Source: a virus
Virus record (IMG/VR): IMGVR_UViG_3300027793_000082
Span: 4,959 to 68,958 of that record
Length of the DNA stretch: 64,000 nt
Direction: 5' to 3' (one strand)
Made by a program: the position numbers and the translations under genes. Below the pieces are notes generated by a model. That model was not told the DNA's origin. It did no database searches and was given only the letters and a program-made list of their open reading frames with translations. Position 1 is the stretch's first letter, and each line of letters begins with the position of its first letter. Below are positions 593-58,252 of this stretch, piece by piece.

Positions 593-1624
593 TTACTTCC
601 AAACAGGAGTCCCATCAGGAGCTTTAACCTCACTTGCCCATACTTGTCGGATCCGAGTTTTCACCTCAGCTGGCACTGGTACATAGTCCAGCCGCTCAGC
701 TATCTCGTCCCCATGTGAGAAAGCCCAGTCAAAAAACCGCATGGTTGTGAGGCTTGTGGCAGGATTCTTGGGATCACGTGGGAGCAAGATGAAGGTTGGA
801 CTGACGATGGGCCATGTGTCCTTTCCAGGTTGATCTATGAGGTTGACAGCAAAATTGGGCACATTCCAGTTGGCTGCGGCTGCTGTTGCCTCAAAAGCTT
901 TGTGGTTGGGACGCACCCAATGTCCGTCCTTGTTCCGAATTTGCGTTGTCACCAATCCAGCTTGTTGGGCATATGCATTCTCCACATAGCCGATGGCGCC
1001 GCGAAGCTGACGCACACTGGCACTTACACCTTCATTCCCTCGTGCACCTGTGCCAATGGGCCACTTTACACTGGTACCGGTACCAACTCTAGAGCGCCAT
1101 TCCTCGCTTACTGCTGAGAGATAGCTGGCCCACACATAGGTTGTGCCACTGCCATCTGCCCGATACACAACAGCTATCGCTAAATTGGGAAGGCGCAGCG
1201 TGGGGTTAAGCTCTACAATTCGTTGGTCATTCCATTTTACAATCTTGCCAAGATATATGTCAGCCAAGACTTGGCCAGTTAGCCTCAGCTGATCCCTTTC
1301 CAGTCCCGGAACATGCACAGCCGCTACCAAACTGCCCATCGCAGCAGGAAATTGGAGCAGGTTGTTTTTCTCAAGGTCTTCTTGTTTCATTGGAGCATCA
1401 CTTGCACCAAAGTCCACTGTGCGGTTTCTTATTTGGTTTTGACCAGCCCCACTTCCCACACTTTGATAGTTGAGTTGAATTCCAGTTTTTTTGGCTTCTT
1501 CCCCCCATTTCTGATACAACGGATTGGGAAATGTTGCCCCAGCCCCGTTGATAGGTTGTGCCATAACTGATGCAGTAGAGCTTATTACAAGCACCGCAGC
1601 AGCCAGCAATGTTTTTAGATACAT
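593..1624 (-). CDS. pstS: phosphate ABC transporter substrate-binding protein
   Basis: Signal peptide then GAGATFP, YQSVGSGAG, DFGASDAP, RADGSGTT, GNEGV motifs; start re-called at ATG 1624 after an AAGGA RBS. Confidence 0.95.
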   Translation of the reverse strand: MYLKTLLAAAVLVISSTASVMAQPINGAGATFPNPLYQKWGEEAKKTGIQLNYQSVGSGAGQNQIRNRTVDFGASDAPMKQEDLEKNNLLQFPAAMGSLVAAVHVPGLERDQLRLTGQVLADIYLGKIVKWNDQRIVELNPTLRLPNLAIAVVYRADGSGTTYVWASYLSAVSEEWRSRVGTGTSVKWPIGTGARGNEGVSASVRQLRGAIGYVENAYAQQAGLVTTQIRNKDGHWVRPNHKAFEATAAAANWNVPNFAVNLIDQPGKDTWPIVSPTFILLPRDPKNPATSLTTMRFFDWAFSHGDEIAERLDYVPVPAEVKTRIRQVWASEVKAPDGTPVWK

Positions 1625-1701
1625 TATTATTCCTTTCATATCCATATTGGCACTGTAATTTTGCCTGATTTTCAAATAACGTGCAAGAGCACTAGCCACT
1701 T

Positions 1702-1719
1702 TTAACAGAAGCGTAACAG
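1702..1719 (-). promoter_or_regulatory. Pho-box-like direct repeat CTGTTAC-GCTT-CTGTTAA
   Basis: 7-4-7 spacing (11-bp period) resembling the PhoB box CTGTCAT-N4-CTGTCAT, ~80 nt upstream of pstS. Confidence 0.65.
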
Positions 1720-1779
1720 TCAAAGTCTCTAGCATAAGACCCTGGTCTGATCCTAAATAGTACAAATGAAGGAACAGCT

Positions 1780-8246: not shown

Positions 8247-9941
8247 GTGTTACACAAGCTTAAAATGTTGATTGAAAAGGCAAGCCCAAAACACATTGGG
8301 CAGAGCATCAAAAAAGATCAGTTACTGGAAAATTGGCTATTGGAGCAAACTCAAAATTTAGCACCAGAGGTATCTTTGAGTGAACGTGCATACTCTGTAA
8401 TCAATAATATCAGCAATCTTTGTGAATATAATGCCATCAAAAAATTCAAAAGCTTCAAAGAAGGTTACGGCTTTTGTGGAATGACCAAAAACTGCAAGTG
8501 TGCACAAGAGAGTGTTAGCGAAAAAGTTTCTGCTTCAAAAGCCAACAAAACAACAGCAGAAAAACTAGAGACCAACTCTCGGCGTGCAGCTACAAACATC
8601 GCACGATACGGAGTAACAAATTCTGGGCAAACACTAGAGGCAAAACAGCGCCACAAAGATACATACAACAACAAAGCAAAGGTAACTGAAATTGTTGCCA
8701 AACACCAAAAAACGGTGCAAGACAAATATGGTGTCAGTAACGTTGCTGCATTATCTACTGTCAAACAAAAAAAGGTGCAAACAAACTTGGTGAAGTTTGG
8801 GGTAGATAACCCTATGAAAAACAAAGAGATTAGTGCCAAAGCAACGGCTACAAAACAACAACGATATGAACCACACCACTTAGCAAAACAAAATTATCCA
8901 AGATTTATTCAAATGGTGGTGGAAAACTTTGGTGTCACTCCGCAAATAAGTGCTCAAGAGTATATTGGAGTGCAAACTCGGCCAGAGATGAAATTTGAAT
9001 GTGTCCATTGTGCCACAAGCTTTGTGAAACGTTTCGATTATGCAAGCCCACCAATCTGCAAAGTGTGCTATCCTACCTCTGTTGAATACAAGAGCAAAGA
9101 AGAACTTGAGCTTTTGGCATATGTAAAATCAATCTATCCTGGCAATGTCATAAGTGGTGATCGCAGGAGCATCAATCCTTATGAGATCGATATACTCTTG
9201 CCAGAATTGAAAATTGGCATCGAATATTGTGGACTGTATTGGCACAGCGAAAATTCAGGCAAGAAAAGCTGGAATTATCATTATCGCAAATTTGACGCTG
9301 CCCGAAACAAAAATATCAGACTCATTACTATTTTCAGTGATGAATGGGCATTCAAAAAAGAAACACTGAAACAATATCTTGCCGTTACTTTGGGTCAACA
9401 ATCAGCAAGCATTTGGGCTAGGAAATGTAATTTTCAAAAAATCTCTCACACTGATGCCAAAACGTTCCTAGCAGAATATCATATGCTATCGGCTCCACAA
9501 CGCATGAGTTGGACAGGAGGCTTGACCTTAAATGGTACACTGGAAGGTGTTATGTGTTTCAAAAAGCACTCTGCAGGCGAGTATGAACTCACTAGATTCG
9601 CAACTAAAACTCATGTAGTGGGGGCAGCAAGTAAATTACTGAAAACTTTCATTCAAGAAGTATCGCCCGCCGAAATTTTCAGTTTCAGTGACAATAGATT
9701 TTCACAAGGTGCTGTGTATAAAACATTGGGATTTGAACAAACAGGTATTGTGCCTCCCATGCAAAGCTATGTTGAAAATTACAGTGCGAGGCATCATAAA
9801 CGCTCGATGAAAAAAGGCAAATTATTGCGAGATTATCCCCATCTTGACCAAAAACTCTCAGAATGGGCATTATTACAGAGCTTGGGGTATGATAGGATAT
9901 GGGATTGCGGAAAAATCAAATGGACACTGAAGTTGAAGTGA
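8247..9941 (+). CDS. putative homing endonuclease (KYGV-N repeats, Zn ribbon, PD-(D/E)XK/Vsr-like domain, C-terminal GNAT-like domain)
   Basis: YEIDILLPELKIGIEYCGLYWHS; CxxC pairs; YELTRFA...GAASKLL...YKTLGF...IWDCG; TATAAATA at 8209-8216. Confidence 0.7.
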   Translation: MLHKLKMLIEKASPKHIGQSIKKDQLLENWLLEQTQNLAPEVSLSERAYSVINNISNLCEYNAIKKFKSFKEGYGFCGMTKNCKCAQESVSEKVSASKANKTTAEKLETNSRRAATNIARYGVTNSGQTLEAKQRHKDTYNNKAKVTEIVAKHQKTVQDKYGVSNVAALSTVKQKKVQTNLVKFGVDNPMKNKEISAKATATKQQRYEPHHLAKQNYPRFIQMVVENFGVTPQISAQEYIGVQTRPEMKFECVHCATSFVKRFDYASPPICKVCYPTSVEYKSKEELELLAYVKSIYPGNVISGDRRSINPYEIDILLPELKIGIEYCGLYWHSENSGKKSWNYHYRKFDAARNKNIRLITIFSDEWAFKKETLKQYLAVTLGQQSASIWARKCNFQKISHTDAKTFLAEYHMLSAPQRMSWTGGLTLNGTLEGVMCFKKHSAGEYELTRFATKTHVVGAASKLLKTFIQEVSPAEIFSFSDNRFSQGAVYKTLGFEQTGIVPPMQSYVENYSARHHKRSMKKGKLLRDYPHLDQKLSEWALLQSLGYDRIWDCGKIKWTLKLK

Positions 9942-25026: not shown

Positions 25027-25860
25027 ATGAGTAATCCGTTAAGTCAATACTTTCACACTCCCAAAGCTTATGTACAATTGCCAACACAAGGAAGATTTTA
25101 CCCTCCTGACTTTGTTGAAACATCCGCCAATGGTGAAGTGGCTGTGTATCCATTGACAGCAATTGACCAAATAATGCTGAAAACTCCAGATGCTTTGCTG
25201 AACGGTGATGCTTTGTTGAGCGTGTTCAAAAATTGTGTTCCAGGGGTGAAAGATCCCAAGCAGCTGGTGGAACCTGACATCAACACATTGTTGGTAGCCA
25301 TAAGGATAGCCAGTGCTGGTTCCACAATGGAAGTGGAAACCACATGCCCCAATTGTGGAAAAGAGCACAATTTTGGAATTGATCTCAGTGGATTTATTGA
25401 AACCCAAAGCACTGTGGAAGGTCCCACGTATGTGGAAATTGACGGCGCACTGCAAGTTTTCCTACGCCCTTATAATTTTCAACAGAGAAACCTGCAACTA
25501 TTGAATGAAGTTGAACAAGCCAGATCCATAAAAGTGTTGGAAGAAACAGAAACCACTGATGCTGAAAAAATCAGCAGTGTAACCAAGCAAATCAATCAAA
25601 TGGCTCAGCGAACTCTAGACATCATGAGCATGAGCATTACTGCAATCAAAATAATCAGCACCGGTGAAACAGTAACAAACCCGGGATACATTCAAGAGTT
25701 TGTGAAAGGTATTCCCACAACCAGTGCCAATGCCATTATCGACAAACTCAAAGAGTTGAATTCCATTGGTGTTGATACAGAAACCAGTTTTCAATGCGAC
25801 GCTTGCAGCCACTCTTGGAGTCAAAGAATCGACTTCGATCCCACAAGTTTTTTCGAATAA
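25027..25860 (+). CDS. baseplate hub assembly protein/tail chaperone (T4 gp26/gp51-like)
   Basis: NPL.QYF, LP..G.FY, LKTPDALLNG, CPNC and CDAC Zn motifs, ends FDPTSFF. Confidence 0.75.
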   Translation: MSNPLSQYFHTPKAYVQLPTQGRFYPPDFVETSANGEVAVYPLTAIDQIMLKTPDALLNGDALLSVFKNCVPGVKDPKQLVEPDINTLLVAIRIASAGSTMEVETTCPNCGKEHNFGIDLSGFIETQSTVEGPTYVEIDGALQVFLRPYNFQQRNLQLLNEVEQARSIKVLEETETTDAEKISSVTKQINQMAQRTLDIMSMSITAIKIISTGETVTNPGYIQEFVKGIPTTSANAIIDKLKELNSIGVDTETSFQCDACSHSWSQRIDFDPTSFFE

Positions 25861-26096
25861 AGCTTCTCAGAGGTGATCCCCAGGAGATCACCAAAACACT
25901 GAGAAGCTGTGAAAAAGAAGTGGAAATGATTGAAAGCGATATTGCAAACCTAGTGTATTACATGAACGGTGGTTTGACCTACAGTGAAGCTTGGCATCTT
26001 TCGACAACACAGATGCAAGCCTTGTCTGGAACTATTTCAAAACACTATGAAATGCAAGCAGAAGCCTATCGTAGAGCACAAACCAAGAAGGTATAA
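25848..26096 (+). CDS. -1 frame extension of the preceding gene, or a small separate ORF from ATG 25927
   Basis: Overlapping open -1 frame (YYMNGGLTYSEAWHLS) beginning across a T-TTT-TTC heptamer. Confidence 0.6.
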   Translation, partial: FFRIKLLRGDPQEITKTLRSCEKEVEMIESDIANLVYYMNGGLTYSEAWHLSTTQMQALSGTISKHYEMQAEAYRRAQTKKV

Positions 26097-26119
26097 TTGA
26101 ATATTTGATACTTGGGTAT

Positions 26120-26500
26120 TTCGTTAGGGAGGAAGTCACACTTCTCCCCACCGGGAGGAGAAGTTTGAAAAAGGCTTTCGTATAGGGCTTCGGCCTGCCT
26201 GTCTCGTCTTGGGATTGTATCCAGCTGGCGGAGAACCTATTTCCAGCATTCCTGACTCTCTTCTCGGACTTATGCTCATGGAGCTGCCTTCTCGGTTATG
26301 TGCTCATCACACACGCAGGGAACCCAGTCAGACAGGCTGTTGACTGAACCCCTTCCAGCTTCACGGGACAGTGAGAGGCTGGATCCTTTTTGTTCACTTT
26401 CGTGGCGAGGGCATAGAACAGTAAACCCTCATGCGTAATTTTCCCCTGCCTTCGCGCCTGGTAGATACGGATGGACACTACACCATCATACTAAGCCACT
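26120..26500 (-). ncRNA. candidate large structured non-coding RNA (strand uncertain)
   Basis: ~420 nt gap without a credible ORF; many stems (acttctcc/ggagaagt, cagtca/tgactg, tccagc/gctgga, gaggg/ccctc, gatgg/ccatc, long-range gcagggaa/ttcccctgc). Confidence 0.5.
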
Positions 26501-26518
26501 ATTTTGAAAAACCGTATA

Positions 26519-27328
26519 TTATGCGTAGTTGCTGATTCTAAAATTGCCTGGTGTACGTGCTGTGCTGTCTAGGTATTTCAAAAGATAATTGTTGTTTGTG
26601 TTCTTGAAATCAATTACCCAAGGAGTGTTGTATTCAACATACCGACCACTCTCTTGCTTGATAATTGCTGTTGTCCATCTATTGTATTCGTTGAGATTGA
26701 ATTGAGGAATAATTATGGGTTTTGTGGTTAACGGGGTCCAAATTTCTGTGTGTTCTTCAGTATTGTTGTATTTGTATTTGATTTCATTACGAGGTATTTG
26801 TGCATGACGCTTGTTACTGAACTCCAGTTCGCTCAAACTGCTGGGTGGAGTCTTGTATGCGACTTCAATTATATCACTTGTTTGTGGATGAGCCAAAATG
26901 TCTGCTTGTTCTTTGTAAAAATCAATCACTGCCCTAGCCATTTGTTTCTTGGCTTCTGGAATCATGATCCAGCGATTGGCACCAGCTGATTCAAACATCA
27001 TGATTTGAGCTTCACTCAAAACAGTTTTGTTCGTGAGACGGTCAAACACAACATGAAAATAACTCTTCAATGAGTCTGGCCATTCAGCTGGCTTTTTCAC
27101 AAGGTCACGAATGTTGAGATTGTGTTTGGCTAGTTCACAAAAGAGTGAGGCTTGTTCATTGGAAATATTGAGGATGCTTTGAGGAAAAGCTCTTACTCGG
27201 CTACCAAACGCTCCAACCAGTGTATTGTAAAATCCCAGTTCTTGACGGAAAAAGCTGTTCAAGCGATTTTGATCAATGGGATCAACTACAATAAAAATGC
27301 TGCGTTGTTGTGGCTTATTGTATTTCAT
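26519..27328 (-). CDS. hypothetical protein resembling TnpB/Cas12 N-terminal WED-REC region, lacking RuvC
   Basis: IFIVVDPIDQNRLNSFFRQELGFYNTLV resembles the TnpB pattern R.LYPT..Q...L...FG..R.VYN..L; TAIIKQESGRY..W.IDF resembles the closing WED strands. ORF itself is solid; the family call is tentative. Confidence 0.45.
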   Translation of the reverse strand: MKYNKPQQRSIFIVVDPIDQNRLNSFFRQELGFYNTLVGAFGSRVRAFPQSILNISNEQASLFCELAKHNLNIRDLVKKPAEWPDSLKSYFHVVFDRLTNKTVLSEAQIMMFESAGANRWIMIPEAKKQMARAVIDFYKEQADILAHPQTSDIIEVAYKTPPSSLSELEFSNKRHAQIPRNEIKYKYNNTEEHTEIWTPLTTKPIIIPQFNLNEYNRWTTAIIKQESGRYVEYNTPWVIDFKNTNNNYLLKYLDSTARTPGNFRISNYA

Positions 27329-27422
27329 TCTCAATACTCTTTTGTTGATTTGATTATAAGTAGTGAGAATCATAAAATCAAAAGGTTACAGAACTTTTTC
27401 TGGACAACAAGGAACAGAATAT

Positions 27423-27938
27423 ATGGCAGCGTCAAAAGGCAAAGCAAAAGGCAACGCAGGTGAGCTGCGTATCGCTAAATTTCTTACGGACCTCTATGAG
27501 GCTAAATTTATTCGTGTGCCCAATAGTGGTGCATTTATTGGGGGAGCTAACACAAAAAGAAAAGAAACCATGGATGCTACCCAAATCAGCTATTTCAAAA
27601 GCGATCTTATTCCACCCTCACATATGAAAAAACTGGTGATTGAAAGTAAATTTTATCAAGACTTTCCTTGGCACAAGCTTATGTGCAAGGGCGATGTCAA
27701 GCAGTTGGACAGTTGGATTGAACAAACATTGGATGTGTGTGATCCCGAGGACTTGTGGTTTGTAGTAATCAGAATCAACCACAAAGGCAGTTACGCTTGT
27801 TTTGACCAAAAACATTTGCCTGTCTTTGTTGTGGAAAATCATGTTCGTTACAAAACATTTGTGTTAACTGAGTTTGAGCCATTTTTTGAACAAAACAAGC
27901 TGAAGATTCAAGAACTGTGCTATACAGCAGGAGTGTAG
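27423..27938 (+). CDS. Holliday junction resolvase-like PD-(D/E)XK nuclease
   Basis: KAKGNAGELRIAKFL, RVPNSGA, SDLI, VIESKFY. Confidence 0.8.
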   Translation: MAASKGKAKGNAGELRIAKFLTDLYEAKFIRVPNSGAFIGGANTKRKETMDATQISYFKSDLIPPSHMKKLVIESKFYQDFPWHKLMCKGDVKQLDSWIEQTLDVCDPEDLWFVVIRINHKGSYACFDQKHLPVFVVENHVRYKTFVLTEFEPFFEQNKLKIQELCYTAGV

Positions 27939-29707
27939 TCCCATTCAAATCTGGAAAAATTGTCTTCCTTGATAACCGACAGCACTTGAGAACACCTGCT
28001 CTGCAACTCTTCTCGATGTGAGATCAGCAAAATATTTTTGTTACGATCTCTACTCATGGCTTTCAAAGTTTCCAAAGACCTTTCCAAGCCTGTGCTGTCC
28101 AAGCCCACATCAAGAATTTCATCCACTGCCATGAAGTTGATGCTGGTGTTCATGTGCTCAAAAATGTCACGGAACGCCCAGCTCAACGCCAAACATACTC
28201 GAGTTCGCTCTCCTCTACTCAAGCTGTCAAAGTCAAAGTCCACGCCCAGATGCATGATCTCCACTCCCAAATCATTGCTGAATTTCACTTGATGTGGCAG
28301 CATCAAACCAGTGAGATACTCACCCAGTCGATAGTTCAAGTAACTGAGATTTTGATCAATAATCCTTTTTCTGATAAAACTGTCTTTGTTTGTCAGCAGT
28401 TTCAAAAGAAACTCTTGATGATCCTTGAGTTGGCTTAGTTCATTTAAGGAGTCATAAGAAACTTCTTGTAGAGTGGAGTTCAAGGAACCCACTTGTGCTT
28501 GATAAGGATTGGTTTCCAGCTGGAGTTTGTCTAGTTCAGCACTTAGCAATGTGAGACTGTTTCTGTGTTCATAGGCTTCATCAATGCTTTTGTAAAACGT
28601 GGGATTCAAGCTCACTGCACCACTCAGCTCCTGAAGCTCACTTAGTTCTTGAGTCAGCACCTGGCACTCTTGTTCCAATGTTTGGATACTTTTGTCCAGC
28701 CGGGTTATCTTGTGTTCAAGGTCATCCAGCAAACTGGTTTGTTTTTCGTCATGAATTTTTTGTCCACACATGGCGCAATTGTGTTCTTGAATTTGTGAAT
28801 ACTGTGTAAGCCAGCCAGTTTGTTGTGCCTTCAGCTGTGATAAATGCTGTGCTTTGGTTTGGTTTTGGCTTTGAGTGTTTTTCAATGCTGTTTGAAGCTC
28901 GCGATACACAAGATTGTCTTTGTGGGATTGAATTTCTTTTTCAACATCAAGATGGCTGAGTGCCACCAATGCATTTTCCAGTTCTTGTATTTTGTTTTGA
29001 TGTTGAATGTTCCATTGAAGAGTTTTTTGATTCAAACTTTCAATAGTGCTTAAAATACGTGCATTGCTGTTTTTCACAGTGTGGATTTTGAACTCTTCTT
29101 GCTCAATGCTTGCCTTTGTTGTTTGTATGAGCTTTTTGAGGTTTTCTGCCTTTTGAGAAAGCAATGTGATGCCCAAAAGTTCTTCAATAATTTCCCGTTG
29201 TTTACCTGCGCCCATACTCAAGAATGGTTCAGTATAGGTGTTCAATGCCACAATGTGTTTGAACATTGTGTGGCTGATGCCCAATACCTTTTCAATGTCT
29301 TTTTGAGTGTCTTTGTTCTCTCCTTGAGCCTCATCAGCACTTTTGTTTTCATTTACTGACTCATCGTTGATAATATAACGGAAAAAGCTGGGGGCACGCC
29401 CGCGTTCAATTTTGTAGCTGTTGCCGTTGGCCTCAAACTCAATGCTCACAGCCATGTTCTTTTTGTTGATGCTGTTGATGAGGTTGTTTTTCTTGATGTT
29501 GGTAAGAGCTTGGCCATACAGCCCATAACAGATGGCAGAGATCAATGTGCTTTTGCCAACACCGTTACGGTTGCCGTTTCCACCCAAGTCCAAATTTTCA
29601 CCCAACACAAGTGTCAAACCAGGCTGTGTGAGATTTATGGATTGTGAGACTGCACCCACACTCATGAAGTTTTTGATTGTTACGTTTTTGAGTGTAATCA
29701 AGGTCAA
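27920..29707 (-). CDS. recombination endonuclease ATPase subunit (T4 gp46/SbcC/Rad50-like)
   Basis: NGVGKST Walker A, CAMC hook, LSRGE signature, VDEILD Walker B, LISH. Confidence 0.93.
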   Translation of the reverse strand: MTLITLKNVTIKNFMSVGAVSQSINLTQPGLTLVLGENLDLGGNGNRNGVGKSTLISAICYGLYGQALTNIKKNNLINSINKKNMAVSIEFEANGNSYKIERGRAPSFFRYIINDESVNENKSADEAQGENKDTQKDIEKVLGISHTMFKHIVALNTYTEPFLSMGAGKQREIIEELLGITLLSQKAENLKKLIQTTKASIEQEEFKIHTVKNSNARILSTIESLNQKTLQWNIQHQNKIQELENALVALSHLDVEKEIQSHKDNLVYRELQTALKNTQSQNQTKAQHLSQLKAQQTGWLTQYSQIQEHNCAMCGQKIHDEKQTSLLDDLEHKITRLDKSIQTLEQECQVLTQELSELQELSGAVSLNPTFYKSIDEAYEHRNSLTLLSAELDKLQLETNPYQAQVGSLNSTLQEVSYDSLNELSQLKDHQEFLLKLLTNKDSFIRKRIIDQNLSYLNYRLGEYLTGLMLPHQVKFSNDLGVEIMHLGVDFDFDSLSRGERTRVCLALSWAFRDIFEHMNTSINFMAVDEILDVGLDSTGLERSLETLKAMSRDRNKNILLISHREELQSRCSQVLSVIKEDNFSRFEWDYTPAV

Positions 29708-30735
29708 ATACTCTGATAAATTTCAATCAAGCGTTGGTTGTTCATTGTTGTGCTTTCAATACTATTCAAGTGTGAAATCACAATTGAGTCAACGCTTTCA
29801 AAGTTGATCTCACTGTCATCAAGAACAGTGTCGTCTCCGTCACTTCTGCCATGGATGAAACTCACATCCAACGCATTGAGTTGTGTTTCAAACAGTTCTC
29901 TGATAAATGCACTGTCTTCATAGGTTAAATCACAATCCACTGTGATGCGAACAAACGTTTTGTTATCAATCAAAGAGGTGGGATCTTGAAGAGCCTCAGT
30001 AAGGTTATAGACCCTATACTTGGGCGCCCCAGGCCATTTTTCAAAAATGGGTTCCTCTCCTGGACTCCAAATCATCAACCCTCGATCATCATCAAAAACA
30101 TCAGCATAATTGTGTGGAAAGGCGTTTCCAATATAACAAATGTTGCCTTTGCGTTGCCTTTTGTGAAAGTGACCACTGAATACCAGTTTTTGATGCTGAA
30201 AGTGCTCAGCATTCAAACCACCATGATCAGGCATTTCCACATGAGCATTCATGCGGAACTTAGCAATTTCAGCATGACAAAACAAATAAGGCTGTTTGAT
30301 GGTTTGAATTTTTTTGTAGTCGTCACCAACCAACCAAGGAACAAAACAAAAGTCTTTTACAGTGGTAATTTTGTCAATGAGATGAATATTGGGAAAGTCT
30401 TGTGCATAAGGAATACTATGCAGTTCCAGCGTGTCACGAAAATAGAGATCATGATTTCCCAATAGCATAATCACATTATCAAAACTGTTGTTGAGCAGCT
30501 TCATTCCATTGTGACTATAGTTGAGAGTGCTGATGTTCACATTGTTTCTGTTGTGACTCCAGTCACCCAAAAACAAAAGTGTTCGGATATTCAACTCTTT
30601 TGCTCTAGCCACCACAAACTCCAAAAACTCAGTGCACCAAGTGTTGTGCTGTTTGGAGTTGTTGCGCATGCCATAATGCAAATCTGTGATGACAATTGTT
30701 TTGGAAAAATCAACAGTGTCTAAATTGATAGTCAT
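29704..30735 (-). CDS. recombination endonuclease nuclease subunit (T4 gp47/SbcD/Mre11-like)
   Basis: TDLHYG, LGDW, GNHD, SGHFH metallophosphoesterase motifs. Confidence 0.93.
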   Translation of the reverse strand: MTINLDTVDFSKTIVITDLHYGMRNNSKQHNTWCTEFLEFVVARAKELNIRTLLFLGDWSHNRNNVNISTLNYSHNGMKLLNNSFDNVIMLLGNHDLYFRDTLELHSIPYAQDFPNIHLIDKITTVKDFCFVPWLVGDDYKKIQTIKQPYLFCHAEIAKFRMNAHVEMPDHGGLNAEHFQHQKLVFSGHFHKRQRKGNICYIGNAFPHNYADVFDDDRGLMIWSPGEEPIFEKWPGAPKYRVYNLTEALQDPTSLIDNKTFVRITVDCDLTYEDSAFIRELFETQLNALDVSFIHGRSDGDDTVLDDSEINFESVDSIVISHLNSIESTTMNNQRLIEIYQSI

Positions 30736-30862: not shown

Positions 30863-32584
30863 GTGATTTTGGCAGAATTGAAAGAACGTTGGTTGAACAA
30901 GGAGATTACACCTAATAGGTTGACAAAGTTGTTGCCTATACACAAAGAAGAGCTAGACAAATTATTTCCTTATGAAGGTCCAATTGCAGCTAAATTTTAT
31001 GCATACGTTCATAACGGTAATGCAGAAAACAGTTGGTGTGAACAGAGTGGTAAGTTCAGGACATTCAATAATATGGTTCGAGGGTTCAGAAAATTCTGTG
31101 GTAATCAATCTCAATGCTCCTGTAATCGTGAATATCAGGAAAGCGTTCGACACAGCCGCACTAGAGATGAAATAAATCATATTCACGAAAAACGTAAAAA
31201 TACCAACCTTCAAAAGTATGGTTTTGAGTATGCAAGTCAACATGACAAGGTCAAAGCCAAAGCTGAGACCACATGTTTTGAAAAGTATGGTGCAAAAGCT
31301 CCAACCTTAAATCCTGTTGTTTTAGACAAAGCACAAAAAACGATTCAGGAAAATTGGGGAGTAAGCTTCCCTCAGCAACATCCTGATATAAGAACCAAAA
31401 CTATAGAGGTGTTTCAAAACACTTATGGAACACCGGTTCCTGCTCAAAACCTGGAGGTGTTAGTTAAAACCAAAAAAACCAACCTCTCAAAATATGGTGT
31501 TGTGGCCCCGTTTTTGACAACAGAGCATAGGGAGACCAATAGGAAAACTTTTCGGCAAAAATCTTGGGATTCCTATATTGCAAATAGGACTGATTACATT
31601 CCGTTATTCACTCAAAAAGAATTTTTGGACTCACATCGTTATTCTGAACATTTGTTTGTTTGCCAAAAATGCCATAACCAATTCAGTGTTGCCTTGAAAA
31701 GAGAATCTGATTTGCGTTGTTTTGATTGTTATCCAAGAAAAGAAAGTTGGGGAGAAACAAAGATCAAACAATGGTTGTGGGATAATAACATATCTTTTGA
31801 TCAATGGAATAGGGAAGTTATCAAGCCATTGGAGATTGACTTTTATCTCCCAGATTTAAATGTGGGTATTGAGTTCAATGGCATTTTTTATCATTCAGAT
31901 TGCCAAATAGGAGACAAAAAATATCATCAAAATAAATGGAAACAAGCTCTTGAAAAAGGTGTCAGGCTTGTTCAAATTTGGGAACATGAGATGGTGCAAA
32001 AACCCAATATCATATTTGATAGATTGTCACACGTAGTGGGATTGAAAAAAACAATTGTTGGTGCACGTAAATGTAACATTACAGTTGTGGATTTTGGGAC
32101 AGCTAAAACATTTATTCAGAACTCACATTTGCAGGGCAACATACCAACCAAACATATTTGGGGGTTGGAACACAACGGGTTGCTTGTTGCACTTGCTAGC
32201 TTTGTCAAAACTAGGTATAGCAAAGGGAGTGATTATGAGCTGGCCCGATATTGTATTTTGCCTGGGTATCATGTCCCAGGGGGGCTTAGCAAACTTTTGA
32301 ATCATGCACATCAGGAGTTGGGATTCAAAAGCTTGGTGTCCTACAGTAACTTGAACTGGGGACTGGGAAATGGTTACGAGAAAACAGGCTTTGAGTTAAG
32401 TCATATCAGTCCACCCAATTATTGGTATTGGAAAAATATAAATGACGTTCAGAGTCGACTTAAATTTCAAAAACACAAAATACAAGGCTTAGCTGCGGGC
32501 AATACAGAGCAGGAAATTGCCAAAAATTTGGGCTACAATCGTTTTTATGATGCAGGCAACGCAGTGTGGATCAAAAAATACTAG
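30863..32584 (+). CDS. putative homing endonuclease, paralog of 8247..9941
   Basis: KYG repeats, LEIDFYLPDLNVGIEFNGIFYHS, ARKC, YELARYC..GGLSKLL, FYDAG; TATAAATA at 30829-30836. Confidence 0.7.
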   Translation: MILAELKERWLNKEITPNRLTKLLPIHKEELDKLFPYEGPIAAKFYAYVHNGNAENSWCEQSGKFRTFNNMVRGFRKFCGNQSQCSCNREYQESVRHSRTRDEINHIHEKRKNTNLQKYGFEYASQHDKVKAKAETTCFEKYGAKAPTLNPVVLDKAQKTIQENWGVSFPQQHPDIRTKTIEVFQNTYGTPVPAQNLEVLVKTKKTNLSKYGVVAPFLTTEHRETNRKTFRQKSWDSYIANRTDYIPLFTQKEFLDSHRYSEHLFVCQKCHNQFSVALKRESDLRCFDCYPRKESWGETKIKQWLWDNNISFDQWNREVIKPLEIDFYLPDLNVGIEFNGIFYHSDCQIGDKKYHQNKWKQALEKGVRLVQIWEHEMVQKPNIIFDRLSHVVGLKKTIVGARKCNITVVDFGTAKTFIQNSHLQGNIPTKHIWGLEHNGLLVALASFVKTRYSKGSDYELARYCILPGYHVPGGLSKLLNHAHQELGFKSLVSYSNLNWGLGNGYEKTGFELSHISPPNYWYWKNINDVQSRLKFQKHKIQGLAAGNTEQEIAKNLGYNRFYDAGNAVWIKKY

Positions 32585-33546: not shown

Positions 33547-35766
33547 ATGAAGCTGTTTAACCTACTACCACAAGTGAATCTCTCTTTAACTGAGGCCAAA
33601 GCCCGTATTGAGCATCCAGAGGACATGATATTTGATGATGGGTTGGACGGTGCCAAAAGAGCTTTTCATATACTGAGTGCAACTGCCCACAAGCCAGAAT
33701 ATGTTTCCATCAAGTTTGATGGAACTCCGGCCTTGATCTTTGGCTGGAAAGATCACAAATTCGTGCTCACTGACAAAGCTGGGTTCAGCAGCAAGAAGTA
33801 TGATGGGCTGACCACAAGCCCTGAGGCTATTGTGAACATGCTCATGAGCAGGAAAATGAAAGACACTAGCCCCAGTGCAAAAAGTGCTCGACTGGCATAT
33901 GCCAACAAAATAGCCAGTCTCTACCCATTGTTGAAAAAAGTTACCCCAAAAGGATTTATCGGTTACGTTCAATCGGATTTGTTGTGGACTGGTGTTCCGC
34001 CCATAGTTGATGGCGCTTATGAATTCACTCCCAACAAAATAACCTACCGCGTTCCCCTCAACAGTCAGTATGGTGAAATGATCGGCAACAGCAGTGCAGG
34101 AGTAGTTATCCACAGTGTTTATCAAAGCCCCTCTGATCAAGAACCCGAAGCATTGAGAAATGTTGCAGATTATGGTTTCAGGAGTGATCTTGGCCTGGCT
34201 ATCTTGCCTCATGAAGCCACCATGCTCACCAGTTTGAAGTTGGATAAATCCTTGGTTGACAAACTGTCACACTTGTTTAGAGTGCACGCAGTGAGTGTGA
34301 AATCATTCTTGGATAGAGGTCAGCTAGAGACGCAGAAAATTGCTAGTCTTCCAGGCTACATGAAAAGCTTTTTGGCCAAAAAGGCAGAAAAAGGCAGCTC
34401 AAATTTTTCACATGTTGCAAGAGAGTTTTTGGATTGGTTTACAGGGATCAACAGTCCTGCAAGCCCAGGCATGCAGGAAAAGTGTTTGAAATGGATACAG
34501 AGCCACATGCATGGTTACAACAGTGTGTGGCGCATTGTGAGTTTGTTGAACAGCTTGAAGCTGGACCTCAAAAGCCAGATGGACAATCAAGCTGGCTCAA
34601 CGGTGGGTGCCAGTTTGGGAGGCCAGCCTGGCCATGAAGGCTTTGTGGCAGTAACCCCAACTGGTATTGTTAAGTTTGTGAATCGTGCACAATTTATGAG
34701 AAAAGCGCAACCTGAGTCACTTATGGAACAAAGCACAAAAAGCGTTGTCTGGACCTTTGGCCGAATGAACCCTCCCACTTTGGGTCATCAGCATCTGGTG
34801 AACTTGATGGCCAAACATGCTGGTGACGATGACTATTGGATCTTTTTGAGTCATAGTCAAGACGGCAAAAAGAACCCTTTGCCTTGGGAAGAAAAGGTGG
34901 AGTTTTTCCAGCGCATTATGCCTGATCATGCAGAACATTTGGTGCAAGACCCAGATGTGAAAACACCACTACAAGCTGCTGAATGGCTCTACAACAAAGG
35001 CTATCGAGATTTTGTGTTTGTGGCTGGTGAAGATCGGGTCAAGGGCATGAGAGAGCTCTTGGACAGTTGGAACAGTCCTGAAATACGTGAGAAACATCAG
35101 CGTGAACCCATTCACATCAAAGTGGTTTCAGCTGGGGAAAGAAATCCCGATCACAACGGTGTCAAGGGCGTAAGCGGCACCAAGGCTCGTGAAGCTGTAT
35201 TGAACAAAGACAAAGAAGCTTTTCAACAAGCTGTGGGTTTGGACCTTGAACTCAGCAACCAACTGTTTCAAGCTGTACGACGTTACCTCAAGCATCCACG
35301 GAACAAAGTAATGGAATCCAGTTTGCATCCTGCAGGCACAATTGTGACCTTGACCATGAGTCCACCACATGCTGCTCAATTGAAAGAATGGTGTGACAAA
35401 AATGGTGTTCCTTGCATGAACACTGATGAACTTCACATGACTGTTCTCTATAGTCAAAAGCCAGCCTCTCATCTCATGAGCATGCACGGTAATACAGTTG
35501 TTGTGCCAGCTAAAATTCAGGGATGGACCAAGCTGGGGGACAAAGCCCTATGCTTGGATCTTGATTGCGAAATTGCACACAAGTTTCATCACCACTTGAA
35601 AAGCAAGGGTGGGACTCATGATTTTCCTGATTTCATACCACACAGCAGCGTGAACTACAGTTGGATGGACCGAACTGATTTGCCGCAAGTTTTGCCTGAT
35701 TTCCCTTTGTTGTTTGATCGCATTCAGGTCAAGCCACTGGACCCTAATTGGGGTCTCAAAACTTAA
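33547..35766 (+). CDS. three-domain protein: ligase-like nucleotidyltransferase + HxGH cytidylyltransferase-like + 2H phosphoesterase (Acb1/gp57B-like)
   Basis: KFDG / HEGFV / VKFVNR; FGRMNPPTLGH...SGTKAR; LHMTVLYS...FIPHSS. Confidence 0.75.
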   Translation: MKLFNLLPQVNLSLTEAKARIEHPEDMIFDDGLDGAKRAFHILSATAHKPEYVSIKFDGTPALIFGWKDHKFVLTDKAGFSSKKYDGLTTSPEAIVNMLMSRKMKDTSPSAKSARLAYANKIASLYPLLKKVTPKGFIGYVQSDLLWTGVPPIVDGAYEFTPNKITYRVPLNSQYGEMIGNSSAGVVIHSVYQSPSDQEPEALRNVADYGFRSDLGLAILPHEATMLTSLKLDKSLVDKLSHLFRVHAVSVKSFLDRGQLETQKIASLPGYMKSFLAKKAEKGSSNFSHVAREFLDWFTGINSPASPGMQEKCLKWIQSHMHGYNSVWRIVSLLNSLKLDLKSQMDNQAGSTVGASLGGQPGHEGFVAVTPTGIVKFVNRAQFMRKAQPESLMEQSTKSVVWTFGRMNPPTLGHQHLVNLMAKHAGDDDYWIFLSHSQDGKKNPLPWEEKVEFFQRIMPDHAEHLVQDPDVKTPLQAAEWLYNKGYRDFVFVAGEDRVKGMRELLDSWNSPEIREKHQREPIHIKVVSAGERNPDHNGVKGVSGTKAREAVLNKDKEAFQQAVGLDLELSNQLFQAVRRYLKHPRNKVMESSLHPAGTIVTLTMSPPHAAQLKEWCDKNGVPCMNTDELHMTVLYSQKPASHLMSMHGNTVVVPAKIQGWTKLGDKALCLDLDCEIAHKFHHHLKSKGGTHDFPDFIPHSSVNYSWMDRTDLPQVLPDFPLLFDRIQVKPLDPNWGLKT

Positions 35767-50270: not shown

Positions 50271-51173
50271 CTAAAACTTCCAGGGCACACTGTTGCTGAA
50301 AAGATGAAGGAAGATGGCTTGGCGCACATACAGCCCATACCGCATCTGCTTGAAATACACAGCCCTGGGATCACTGTCCAAACTGCTTGGCAGCTCATCA
50401 ACACGCGGTAATGGGTGCATGATGATGGAGGTGCCCCGAGCTTTAATCATATGCTCGGGTGTGAGCTGATACTTGCCTAGAGTGTTTTGTAGGTTGGGTG
50501 CAATCCGTTCCTTCTGCACCCTTGTGACATAGATCACATCCACTTGGCTCACGCACTCATCAAGGCTGGTGTAGACCTTGTCAGTTTTGTGGGTGAGCTC
50601 GGCAGGCATTTCCAATCCCGGAGGGCTTACCATATGCAGTCGCACATCGTAGAGGCGAAGCAGCCGGCTGAGGCTGTGCACCGTGCGTCCATGACGCAAG
50701 TCTCCCATGAGGCATACATCAATCTTTCTGGATAGCCCCACATGACGCTGGATGGTGTAGAGGTCTAAAAGAGCTTGGGTGGGGTGTTCGCCTACACCAT
50801 CACCTGCATTGATGATGGGCACTGGGCTCACAGCAGCAGCCCATTGAGCAGCACCCTTTTCTGGATGGCGAAGCACGATGCAGTCAGAGTAGCTGGCCAA
50901 AGTTCGAATTGTGTCCTCAAGGTTCTCGCCCTTGCTTACTGAGCTGAAGCTGACATCGTTGATGGGGATAACTGAGCCGCCCAATCTCACCATAGCCGAG
51001 TAAAAGCTGCTGCTGGTGCGTGTGCTGGGCTCGTAGAAGAGATTTGTGCTGACCTTACCTTGTGCAGCCGGTTGGCACAAGCCGATCTCGATGTTTCTTA
51101 CAGTTTTGAAGAGGGATTGGATGCTGGGCACATCAAATTGGCTAATGCTCAGCAGATGTGGAACGGGAGTCAT
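50271..51173 (-). CDS. pyrB: aspartate carbamoyltransferase catalytic subunit
   Basis: FYEPSTRT, INAGDG..EHPTQALLD, GDL.HGRTVHSL, MHPLPR. Confidence 0.95.
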   Translation of the reverse strand: MTPVPHLLSISQFDVPSIQSLFKTVRNIEIGLCQPAAQGKVSTNLFYEPSTRTSSSFYSAMVRLGGSVIPINDVSFSSVSKGENLEDTIRTLASYSDCIVLRHPEKGAAQWAAAVSPVPIINAGDGVGEHPTQALLDLYTIQRHVGLSRKIDVCLMGDLRHGRTVHSLSRLLRLYDVRLHMVSPPGLEMPAELTHKTDKVYTSLDECVSQVDVIYVTRVQKERIAPNLQNTLGKYQLTPEHMIKARGTSIIMHPLPRVDELPSSLDSDPRAVYFKQMRYGLYVRQAIFLHLFSNSVPWKF

Positions 51174-51358
51174 CTGGGTTCTTTCTTTCAATTGGGCCCA
51201 CACAAAAGCTGAACCAGCTGGGCGCCCGGGGCAATGTGTTTTCGCTTGTGCTTTGACGTTTGTACAGGCGTGCCTCAGCTTCTGTGGAGAACAGTTGGCG
51301 GCGGATCAGGGTGCGGCCAACTCCACGGCTGCTTTCCCAAATTTCCAACTCCCATTGG

Positions 51359-52375
51359 TTACTCAAAAATGATGGGCTCCGTGCCTGTAGTGATCTCGCC
51401 AATCACTTGTGCATCCTCTCCCATTTGGCTGAGGATTGAGATGGTGTTGTGTGGATCATTGGTGACGATGCACATGCCCACACCCATGTTGAACACCTGG
51501 CGCATCTCGTCTGGGGCGATGGTTCCTAACTTTTGCAGGTAGGTGAAAACTGGTGGTGGTGGCATGAGGTTGGTGATGCGTGCTGTGAAACCTGCAGGCA
51601 ACACCCTAGGCAAGTTTCCTAGTAAGCCACCACCTGTGATGTGAGCTGCTGCTCGGCACAAACGCAACTGGTGAAGTGCCAAAATTGGTTTGACATACAA
51701 CCTGGTGGGTGTCATCAAACTCTCTCCCAGGGTTTTGTCTGAGTCCCAAGGTGAGGACTGCATAAGGTCCAGCTGGTGGTCCTGGATAAGCTTCCGAACC
51801 AAACTGAAGCCATTGCTGTGGATGCCTGAACTGGCTATGCCCACGATGCTGTCGCCAGCAGCCACGTTCTGAGGCAAGAGTGTGTCACGTTCAACAGCCC
51901 CAACAGAGAACCCAGCTACGTCAAAATCCTTTGGTTGATACACCCCTGGCATTTCAGCAGTTTCGCCGCCCACTAGGGCGCAGTCCACAGCACTGCAAGC
52001 CTCTGCTACGCCCTGTAGCAGTGTGGTGTAAAGCTCCACGTCCAACTGTCCAACACTGAGATAGTCCAGGAACCAAAGTGGCGTAGCGCCCATGCACACC
52101 AAATCGTTCACACACATGGCCACAAGGTCCTGTCCCAGTGTGTATAAGGATCCTGGCACTTGTTTAGCCAATTCTAGCTTTGTACCTACCCCATCTGTGG
52201 TACTTACAAATAGCGGGTCACGCATGCCTGTTTGCTTGGGATCAAAAACAGCCCCAAATCCGCCCAAACTCCCTATTACTCCTGGACGTGTGGTGCGTTG
52301 TGCTAGTGGCTTGATGCGTTCTACAAACTCATTCCCATTGCTGATGCTTACTCCAGCCTCTTGGTAGCTGCTCAC
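51359..52375 (-). CDS. purM: phosphoribosylformylglycinamidine cyclo-ligase (AIR synthase)
   Basis: TDGVGTK, DLVAMCVND, GGETAEMP, HSNGFSLVR, HITGGG, FNMGVG. Confidence 0.96.
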   Translation of the reverse strand: MSSYQEAGVSISNGNEFVERIKPLAQRTTRPGVIGSLGGFGAVFDPKQTGMRDPLFVSTTDGVGTKLELAKQVPGSLYTLGQDLVAMCVNDLVCMGATPLWFLDYLSVGQLDVELYTTLLQGVAEACSAVDCALVGGETAEMPGVYQPKDFDVAGFSVGAVERDTLLPQNVAAGDSIVGIASSGIHSNGFSLVRKLIQDHQLDLMQSSPWDSDKTLGESLMTPTRLYVKPILALHQLRLCRAAAHITGGGLLGNLPRVLPAGFTARITNLMPPPPVFTYLQKLGTIAPDEMRQVFNMGVGMCIVTNDPHNTISILSQMGEDAQVIGEITTGTEPIIFE

Positions 52376-52488
52376 ACCACCACCCAAAAAGCTGCGATAA
52401 TGAGGCACCAAAGCACTGCCCCAAATGCAATCCCATTCATGATGCCTTGAGCTGGGCCCAAGTCATTATATCTATATCGTGTTTTCAT
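52372..52488 (-). CDS. 38-aa single-pass membrane peptide (not in ORF track)
   Basis: MKTRYRYNDLGPAQGIMNGIAFGAVLWCLIIAAFWVVV; stop overlaps purM GTG start (GTGA). Confidence 0.5.
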   Translation of the reverse strand: MKTRYRYNDLGPAQGIMNGIAFGAVLWCLIIAAFWVVV

Positions 52489-57276: not shown

Positions 57277-57662
57277 ACCTCTCGGCACAGCCACTCATAA
57301 AGATCCTTGAACATCACCACCTTCTTGCCGTGTTCGGTATAGTTACCATAATATTCGTAGTGGCTGTAGGTGTCTCGGTAGGGCACTTCAGCCAACAGCT
57401 TACGATACTGACGTGCCGCGAGATCTGGGCACGCCTCATCAAGGAACTGATCCAGGAGGTCAAGGGTTGGTTCTGGCTCTGCGCCAACTGGGTAGTCAGC
57501 ACTGTCACCCCAGCAGTTGCCACCGCACATGCCGCCAGTGATCCATGTGACTTCGTAGTAACCTTCAGTGCCATGTGGCCACCAAATGTGGTCTTCACCA
57601 CGCCAATGGTTCATGCTGCTGAACACCAGCCGAATGTAGCCGTCGAACTCTTCACGGGTCAT
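57264..57662 (-). CDS. hypothetical protein
   Basis: W.TGG..GGNCW, EYYGNY; operon-packed. Confidence 0.7.
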   Translation of the reverse strand: MTREEFDGYIRLVFSSMNHWRGEDHIWWPHGTEGYYEVTWITGGMCGGNCWGDSADYPVGAEPEPTLDLLDQFLDEACPDLAARQYRKLLAEVPYRDTYSHYEYYGNYTEHGKKVVMFKDLYEWLCREVWKC

Positions 57663-58252
57663 AGTTTGTCTCCCTGGTTCAAGAAAGCTTGAGCAACTTG
57701 TGCCAGCGCCCTTGGATAGATACGGTGTTCCTGCTCCAGCACACGTTGTGCCAGCGTGTGCTCAGTGTCTCCGGCTAGAATGGGCACTCGAGCTTGGGTG
57801 ATGGGTTCACCAGCGTCCAGCTCTGGGATAACCCAATGTACGGTGCAACCGTGCTCGCTATCACCAGCCTCCAGTGCTCGCCTATGTGTGTCAAGCCCAG
57901 GATAGAGAGGCAGCAGGCTGGGATGGATGTTGATGATCCTACCCTCCCATTGGCTGACGAATTCGGCGCTGAGCACACGCATATAGCCCGCCAGTGCAAT
58001 CAGCTCTATGCCTGCACCTACAAGAGCTGCGTGAAACCCCGCCTCAAGCTCACTGCGACGTTTGTGAGCTGAGGCTACCGTGGGAATGCCACAAGCCTCT
58101 GCCACACGCAATCCTTCTGCCTCTGGATTGTTGCTGAGCACCAGCACGATCTCGGCCGGGTAGGTGGGATCGGCTCGGGCAACATCCAGCAGTCTCGTCA
58201 TGTTGCTGCCCCTCCCGCTGATGAACACAGCGGTTCGAATTCGGCGTGTCAA
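57659..58252 (-). CDS. purN: phosphoribosylglycinamide formyltransferase
   Basis: ISGRGSNM, LAGYMRVL, INIHPSLLP, GCTVHWV..LDAG, EHRIYP. Confidence 0.95.
   Translation of the reverse strand: MTRRIRTAVFISGRGSNMTRLLDVARADPTYPAEIVLVLSNNPEAEGLRVAEACGIPTVASAHKRRSELEAGFHAALVGAGIELIALAGYMRVLSAEFVSQWEGRIINIHPSLLPLYPGLDTHRRALEAGDSEHGCTVHWVIPELDAGEPITQARVPILAGDTEHTLAQRVLEQEHRIYPRALAQVAQAFLNQGDKL

Follow-up and report, generated by a model that had tools for sequence, protein, structure and literature searches.

TnpB, the RNA-guided nuclease of IS200/IS605 transposons, combines a WED domain (residues 1-12 and 117-176), interrupted by a REC domain (13-116), with a RuvC nuclease domain that begins at residue 185 (PMC10097598, in excerpt). 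The locus described here looks like a variant of the TnpB/omegaRNA theme without the nuclease lobe and with a new RNA class, that is, a nuclease-free RNA-protein machine. It lies in a 64-kb window (the whole stretch of DNA analysed, taken from the 68,958-nt IMG/VR virus record IMGVR_UViG_3300027793_000082, for which completeness is estimated at 19%). The locus consists of the gene for a 269-residue protein, here called X, and a conserved structured RNA of about 389 nt behind it, compared with the 116-nt scaffold and 16-nt guide of the omegaRNA of ISDra2 TnpB (PMC10097598, in excerpt).

Relative to ISDra2 TnpB (PDB 8H1J, 8EXA, 8EX9), X lacks the RuvC, TNB and C-terminal domains and shows no detectable sequence similarity. 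Unlike IS200/IS605 elements, the locus has neither a transposase (TnpA, Y1 or serine) nor transposon ends, and it is fixed in the core of a lytic-type phage. The natural TnpB/Cas12 derivatives in the searched literature all keep at least a degenerate RuvC fold, and that literature describes no TnpB relative lacking the whole nuclease lobe or paired with an RNA this large; supplements could list such proteins. Among the exapted TnpBs reported in the excerpted text of PMC10691335 are forms with an inactivated RuvC or without RuvC-III, and a WED+RuvC mini-TnpB. The last of these, the GATase-associated minimal TnpB of Sulfolobaceae, is like X an immobilised TnpB derivative of about 280 residues that has lost one functional half. 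It is nevertheless the mirror image of X, with WED and an active RuvC kept, REC lost and no room for an RNA (PMC10691335, same excerpt). TldR resembles X as a domesticated, binding-only TnpB descendant, phage-borne in one clade, with one fixed RNA per protein; in TldR the TnpB fold persists, the RuvC site is decayed and any truncation is confined to the C-terminus, and the protein carries a ~100-nt scaffold with 9-16-nt guides matching host promoters (PMC10705468, in the part available). X, by comparison, has no nuclease lobe at all and an RNA about four times as large, and a search of the window and two relatives gave no target. Cas12k of CRISPR-associated transposons, Cas12m and the sigma-E-associated dCas12f (PDB 7N3O, 8HHL, 9N9C) retain a RuvC-fold lobe and CRISPR- or omega-type guides, which X does not.

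The fold of X was modelled twice with AlphaFold2 (AF2), independently, from 17 sequences (predicted local distance difference test, pLDDT, 75.8) and from 77 sequences (pLDDT 92.5, predicted template modelling score, pTM, 0.89). In both models, a single N-terminal strand is followed by a helical block and then by a six-strand sheet; the WED OB-barrel interrupted by a helical REC domain, a feature of TnpB/Cas12, is present. Foldseek against the PDB returns nothing below E 1e-3, and the best 25 matches listed are all Cas12k, Cas12f, Cas12n, TranC or Fanzor (E 1.1e-3 to 5.8e-2). In Foldseek-independent structure searches with both models against 48,161 representative PDB chains, TnpB/Cas12/Fanzor proteins are the sole strong matches, occupying rows 1-28 before a drop to unrelated folds. 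The match spans TnpB residues 1-173 and the RuvC domain of TnpB starts at 185, so X corresponds to the TnpB recognition lobe and stops at the WED/RuvC border. Both the WED/REC likeness and the stop at the point where RuvC would start had been claimed in an initial annotation made from the sequence, and both are upheld by the models. The C-terminus of X lies ~25 residues past the last WED strand, with nothing left for RuvC. An RNase H-fold nuclease domain with its acidic triad is absent from the models and from the listed family members (at most 345 residues), and a Zn-finger/TNB insertion is absent from X, where no sequence remains after WED. As modelled, X very probably has the WED+REC fold of TnpB without the nuclease lobe. 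With a profile of 77 family members, no TnpB/Cas12 is found among PDB sequences (best E 0.012, unrelated), and an ESM Atlas search gives a best score of 0.84, at noise level.

The reading frame of X is open over 26519..27373(-), and aligned homologues back the ATG at 27328, the start chosen in the initial annotation, which gives 269 residues. X has no Pfam family at E<=0.01 and no PHROG family. A word-indexed protein search yielded 17 relatives; a profile search of 1.84 billion representatives yielded 195 clusters (50% identity) at E<=1e-3, 171 at E<=1e-10 and 72 at E<=1e-30, which puts the family at 195 clusters or more. Among the 150 members listed, lengths range from 109 to 345 residues, leaving no room for a RuvC lobe. 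A search with subfamily alignment A14 returned no viral locus. The ratio of nonsynonymous to synonymous substitution (dN/dS) is 0.06-0.12 in all six pairs, and X is under purifying selection. Such a widespread, strongly selected family argues that the recognition lobe can be a stand-alone functional unit. A decaying IS200/IS605 relic, consisting of a truncated tnpB pseudogene, a leftover omegaRNA and a right end without function, would account for a TnpB-like fold without its C-terminal half and for a hairpin near the 3' end that resembles a transposon end. It is contradicted by the dN/dS values, by the same truncated length in at least 195 clusters, by an RNA that is more conserved than the neighbouring genes and kept by compensatory changes, and by the fixed position in the phage core, and is hardly credible. 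Nor is there any transposase family among the 49 window open reading frames (ORFs) scanned against Pfam, in agreement with the initial annotation.

Behind X lies a gap of 422 nt (26097-26518) that had been described as free of credible ORFs and richer in guanine and cytosine (GC) than its flanks. Indeed, it holds no ORF longer than 60 residues on either strand, and its GC content is 0.49-0.53 compared with 0.35-0.44 in the flanks; relatives have no ORF of 70 residues or more on the RNA strand, the GC-rich L010 excepted. The gap is conserved beside X homologues with only 25-40% protein identity. Conservation begins ~17 nt past the X stop codon (~26502) and ends abruptly at 26114, and beyond the last conserved element the sequence is unalignable even between close relatives. 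A DNA pattern made from conserved RNA blocks only, run against all of IMG/VR, gave 24 matches, 23 of them true; the false match, L038, is without X and has no further likeness to the RNA locus. A looser three-block pattern gave 28 matches, 25 true (L050, L051 and L053 are false). X lies directly upstream of the RNA in all true loci checked (19 by tblastn, together with L052, L054 and L030). The IMG/VR patterns, a metagenome scan and a subfamily scan supplied 20 distinct full-length RNAs in six clades: A (window, L001, L007, L021), B (L010), C (L023, L030, L033), D (L011, L012, L014, L015, L019), E (L025, L052, L054) and F (L056, L060, L061, L062). The X-RNA locus occupies the same genomic position in all six.

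Conservation is higher in the RNA than in the surrounding genes. Between the window and L001, RNA identity is 95.7% at a synonymous difference (pS) in X of 0.52, and between L011 and L014 it is 96.8% at a pS of 0.72; the exception is the pair L052 and L054, with an RNA identity of 91.6% while pS is only 0.11. No known family accounts for the RNA: Rfam gives no match in the window at the gathering threshold (HEARO, GOLLD, ROOL, RNase P, tmRNA and group I/II introns included) and two chance-level matches in the gap in E-value mode (E 0.56 and 3.6), and ARAGORN finds no tRNA or tmRNA. The minimum free energy of the gap (-127 kcal/mol, z = -0.76, with 18 of 100 shuffles folding equally well) is not beyond chance, and neither is that of the opposite strand (z = -0.29). 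Judged by its conservation and covariation, the RNA is almost certainly real, and it is a new class.

The predicted secondary structure (Table 1) is organised into a 5' domain, a central part, a pseudoknotted region and a 3' part. Helices H1-H4 of the 5' domain were predicted de novo by RNAalifold on the 5' third, and 13 of their 19 pairs show two-sided compensatory changes. In the MAFFT alignment of this domain, 96.8% of 247 cells are paired, compared with 33-45% when the partners are slid by 1-3 columns; its covariation score is 0.623 versus 0.305 in shuffles, and none of 500 shuffles reaches 0.623. The second pseudoknot, PK2, joins the five bases after the invariant UAACC to five variable bases in the otherwise invariant H9 loop. 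All 85 of its cells are paired across 17 distinct sequences, four of its five pairs are compensatory, and slid controls reach 25-58%. Seven helix sequences occur in PK2: GAGAA/UUCUC, GAGUG/CACUC, GAGUA/UACUC, GCGUG/CACGC, GUACG/CGUAC, GAGCG/CGCUC and GAAUG/CAUUC. For helices that MAFFT misregisters, a swap test was used, in which the best stem between homologous column windows is scored within the same sequence and between different clades. Own arms beat cross-clade arms for H1, H2, H4, H5, H6, H7, H9, PK1, PK2 and H12. In this model, about twelve helices and two pseudoknots are retained by compensatory changes across the six clades.

The covarying RNA that the initial annotation had expected downstream of X in homologues is thus found, both in the 5' domain and in PK2, although not every stem that it quoted is part of it. 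All six quoted stem strings occur in the sequence. Compensatory changes preserve four of them: GAGGG/CCCUC, UCCAGC/GCUGGA, CAGUCA/UGACUG and the terminal ACUUCUCC/GGAGAAGU hairpin. The closing helix GCAGGGGAA/UUCCCUGC and CAC-GAAA-GUG are unconserved in other clades, and their bases belong to other helices in the model. The closing helix, a long-range pairing, was dropped as unconserved in clades C and E; a candidate GGAAG/CUUCC pairing between the tail and the H5 flank was dropped on the same ground and also fails the swap test. The summed stem score is 3541 on the strand of X and 3329 on the opposite strand, with 110 G-U among 1448 pairs; of the 15 elements, 11 score higher on the X strand and one scores lower. 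This G-U pairing favours an RNA on the strand of gene X.

A core of 9-13 nt occurs twice in every RNA, once in the H11 loop (copy 1) and once in the 3' tail (copy 2), forming a direct repeat. The two copies change jointly from clade to clade (window, L010, L023, L025, L011 and L061). No third element complementary to them was found at a constant position; a partial pairing with the stretch after PK2 is seen only in clades C, D and E. In the window and two relatives of 310-330 kb, a 19-mer, a 17-mer and a 16-mer around copy 2 match only their own locus, and a 10-mer matches at chance level. The variable 3' guide that the initial annotation had anticipated was not found, nor was a target in these three sequences.

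The organisation of the locus can be read as follows. X would descend from a TnpB-type RNA-guided nuclease, of which only the recognition lobe (the WED OB-barrel and the REC helical insert) remains, with no part of the nuclease lobe. The 389-nt RNA directly behind it would be transcribed with the X mRNA, as omegaRNA is, and fold into a multi-helix, double-pseudoknot scaffold to which X binds. The large RNA would plausibly supply the scaffold that the RuvC lobe provides in TnpB. The bulky omegaRNA of IscB/IsrB is a precedent for a large RNA in place of a missing protein lobe (PMC10097598, in excerpt). IscB/IsrB, however, belong to the Cas9-ancestor lineage and their RNA replaces REC, whereas here the nuclease lobe would be replaced. 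The resulting nuclease-free ribonucleoprotein may recognise nucleic acid, most likely DNA, through WED/REC contacts and base pairing by part of the RNA. It is proposed to bind its target without cutting it, in the role of a regulator, a roadblock or an R-loop maker in the recombination/replication-structural gene block. That X and the RNA form a complex is probable; that the complex recognises DNA in an RNA-dependent manner is a more tentative suggestion and somewhat doubtful. For the explanation as a whole, a TnpB-derived recognition lobe and a downstream RNA forming a nuclease-free, DNA-recognising ribonucleoprotein, the chances are judged about even. The AF2 fold match and the covarying RNA both support the initial description of a nuclease-free TnpB-like protein with a conserved structured RNA.

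Several observations weigh against this explanation. The likeness of X to TnpB is structural only, with neither a Pfam family at the threshold above nor a profile match to TnpB/Cas12 sequences in the PDB. In TnpB it is largely RuvC that holds the omegaRNA scaffold (PMC10097598, in excerpt), and X has no RuvC. PK2 lies ~100 nt from the RNA 3' end, whereas the pseudoknot of TnpB RNA directly precedes the guide (same excerpt). No hypervariable guide set between conserved flanks was seen in the RNA, and the candidate 3' tail matches only its own locus in the window and the two large relatives. In three lineages of subfamily F (L058; L064-66; L067-68), an intact X is followed directly by the convergent gene, without the RNA; in four other F loci, X is separated from the RNA by a 13-bp hairpin and an ORF of ~95 residues, and the RNA is therefore not necessarily the 3' untranslated region of X in every locus. 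RNA-library contigs may be contaminating DNA, and they show neither strand nor ends.

A different role for the RNA is also conceivable. X may be a small protein cofactor of a 390-nt double-pseudoknot RNA that supplies the missing scaffold and possibly chemistry, an RNA-centred effector of a new type with which lytic T4-like giant phages would open specific DNA or mark it. The two repeat copies would then form a new specificity element rather than a classical 3' guide. Its uses could be, for example, the seeding of R-loops for origin- or recombination-dependent replication beside gp46/47, or the exclusion of competing phages. This proposal is speculative and unlikely to be correct as it stands.

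In another reading, X and the RNA merely lie side by side in a conserved T4-like block and are independent of each other. X would in that case be an RNA-free, TnpB-derived DNA binder with duplex recognition of the transposon-associated motif (TAM) type by WED and REC, and the RNA a separate ribozyme, a regulator or a scaffold for another protein. X without adjacent RNA in three of the eight distinct F lineages with at least 1400 nt downstream fits this arrangement, as does the separation of X from the RNA by a hairpin and an ORF in the four F loci; the entire block is syntenic, so adjacency alone is weak evidence of a partnership. The RNA motif was also not found elsewhere in the 20-55 kb records of L058, L064-66 and L067-68, which are 5-13% complete. 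Against independence, the records that have X only are short pieces, and the IMG/VR-wide pattern scan turned up no RNA remote from X. The RNA also occupies the omegaRNA position, at the 3' end of a gene encoding a TnpB-fold protein, and it is bridged to X by contigs from RNA libraries. Independent neighbours are rather unlikely on this evidence. Locus L069 shows a divergent RNA only, recognised by eye.

Part of the stretch is contained in six RNA-library runs, four of which were analysed as assembled contigs; these show neither strand, ends nor level. Two contigs from different metatranscriptome studies cross the X stop codon into the RNA (X15, 26241-27287; X16, 26188-26733). Three contigs stop at 27287, 27323 and 27325, short of the PDDEXK nuclease gene upstream of X, which no contig enters; these ends near a promoter candidate (Table 1) are a weak hint. 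No promoter-like site is seen in the X-RNA interval, and no terminator-like site directly after the RNA. The 13-bp hairpin of L061 was not called a terminator of X and is flagged as an opposite-strand terminator only. The conserved ~95-residue ORF between X and the RNA (L061:2660-2944(+), L060:2729-3019(+)) has no Pfam family and is missing from clades A-E; similar ORFs occur in L067 and L069.

Upstream of X, the divergent nuclease gene reported in the initial annotation is recovered as PDDEXK_15 (Table 1) and also matches PHROG 244, 'RusA-like resolvase' (E 4.1e-12). The residues D61, E74 and K76 of its D..ExK motif are invariant in 8/8 aligned homologues. The gene adjoins X in the window, in clade A and D loci, in all four informative records of clades C-E and in four of the six F loci tested, also where the orientation of the nuclease is flipped (G005, L025, L069). 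The block of gp46-like gene, PDDEXK, X, small ORF and hub is syntenic as a whole, which makes adjacency weak evidence for a functional tie between X and the nuclease. A prediction of an X-PDDEXK complex returned no call (score 0.00) and says nothing either way. Genes for SegE-type GIY-YIG homing endonucleases occupy the PDDEXK_15 position upstream of X in L062:568-1590(-) and L067:1178-1678(-).

This persistent adjacency, with the invariant catalytic motif, raises the possibility that X, the RNA and PDDEXK_15 in trans make up a split RNA-guided homing or competition nuclease. Its cut would fall at a site in related phages or the host that matches the RNA 3' flank. The exact stop of conservation at the RNA 3' end in L052/L054, a mosaic junction of the kind left by homing elements, and the SegE-type endonucleases at the same junction in L062 and L067 agree with such a system. 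Yet PDDEXK_15 is a general phage family and also adjoins gp46/gp47, natural partners for a resolvase-like nuclease; X and the RNA descend together by vertical inheritance through six clades (X identity down to ~25%) and lack the scattered distribution of a selfish element; and the search of the window and the two large relatives gave no target. A split nuclease is considered very unlikely.

The nuclease-free ribonucleoprotein favoured here would make X, at 269 residues, a candidate minimal programmable DNA binder. The pairing of a TnpB-type protein with an RNA about three to four times the size of omegaRNA would extend to the TnpB/Cas12 lineage the lesson of IscB that RNA can replace protein. 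For structural study the locus adds a new class of large structured phage RNA, and it makes an RNA-based function at the core of uncultured freshwater T4-like giant phages accessible to direct testing.

Table 1 Features of the X-RNA locus and its neighbours, in window positions; paired arms are separated by a slash.
Feature	Position	Strand	Remarks
T4-type baseplate hub protein	25027..25860	+	PF12322, E 6e-17
Small convergent ORF	25794..26096	+	Stop codon roughly 15 nt from the conserved RNA 3' end (26114)
Conserved structured RNA, ~389 nt	26114..26502	-	Boundaries from conservation profile and helix coordinates
5' domain	26402..26499	-	RNAalifold; H1 encloses H2, H3 and H4
H1	26495-26499 / 26402-26406	-	
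H2	26483-26487 / 26470-26474	-	
H3	26466-26469 / 26434-26437	-	
H4	26425-26431 / 26406-26412	-	
Pseudoknot PK1	H4 loop / 26393-26398	-	Probable; swap test alone, self 12.1 vs cross-clade 8.5
Central part	26297..26389	-	Invariant single-stranded AAAGGA 26384-26389; invariant UAACCG 26293-26298
H5	26378-26383 / 26354-26359	-	Inner stem 26371-26374 / 26361-26364
H6, long hairpin	26341-26352 / 26319-26330	-	Swap test, self 25.2 vs cross-clade 12.9
H7	26308-26313 / 26297-26302	-	
Pseudoknot PK2	26224..26293	-	RNAalifold; GAGAA 26289-26293 with UUCUC 26231-26235
H9	26243-26247 / 26224-26228	-	Closes the loop holding the PK2 3' arm; H8 in between
3' part	26114..26222	-	
H10	26219-26222 / 26212-26215	-	
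H11	26197-26200 / 26172-26175	-	Loop contains copy 1 (26175-26187)
H12, hairpin	26155-26164 / 26140-26149	-	
3' tail	26114-26129	-	Holds copy 2, at this position
Protein X, 269 residues	26519..27328	-	WED+REC (recognition-lobe) module of TnpB/Cas12 fold; without RuvC, TNB, Zn-finger
Promoter candidate upstream of X	27353..27381	-	Sigma-70-like, TTGATT-17-TATAAT; 10/12 consensus positions
Divergent PDDEXK_15 nuclease	27423..27938 (open from 27363)	+	Pfam E 2.7e-17, 63.6 bits vs cut-off 27
gp46/gp47-like SbcC/Mre11 recombination nuclease pair	27920..30735	-	AAA_23/SMC_N and Metallophos (Pfam)

The border at the RNA 3' end is sharp in clade E. Identity between L052 and L054 is 96-100% across X and the RNA and drops to ~40% immediately past the RNA 3' end (from locus position ~1590 onward), a break that, from the alignment, is read as a mosaic or recombination breakpoint. 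In the same two loci, a near-perfect 20-nt palindrome recognised by eye follows the X stop codon, ~40 nt ahead of the RNA start; its possible roles are those of a processing site or an operator. By eye, the relatives also have a small convergent ORF like that of the window.

The window carries a T4-type core with gp23 capsid, prohead protease, gp20 portal, gp15, gp5-like baseplate lysozyme, baseplate hub and gp46/gp47-like nuclease genes. Close relatives are found on contigs of 310-329 kb rated 76-77% complete, which points to very large T4-like phages. DNA runs containing the stretch are labelled as freshwater and 'fungus' metagenomes. Neither DNA comparison nor tblastn with window X, P0071 or P0113 gave a match in the GenBank phage collection, and a cultured relative was not found; bacterial and archaeal species genomes gave no match to the X peptide patterns or the RNA pattern. 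Host-like metabolic genes in the window, at 593-1765(-), 50271-52411(-) and 57659-58252(-), encode a PstS phosphate-binding protein, aspartate carbamoyltransferase, purM and purN. A 739-residue fusion protein at 33547-35766(+) joins DUF6267, a cytidylyltransferase-like domain and a C-terminal anti-CBASS Acb1 domain (E 1.5e-16). DUF7487 occurs in two large, paralogous-looking ORFs of 564 and 573 residues, at 8247-9941(+) and 30863-32584(+), one of which lies directly beside the gp47-like gene.

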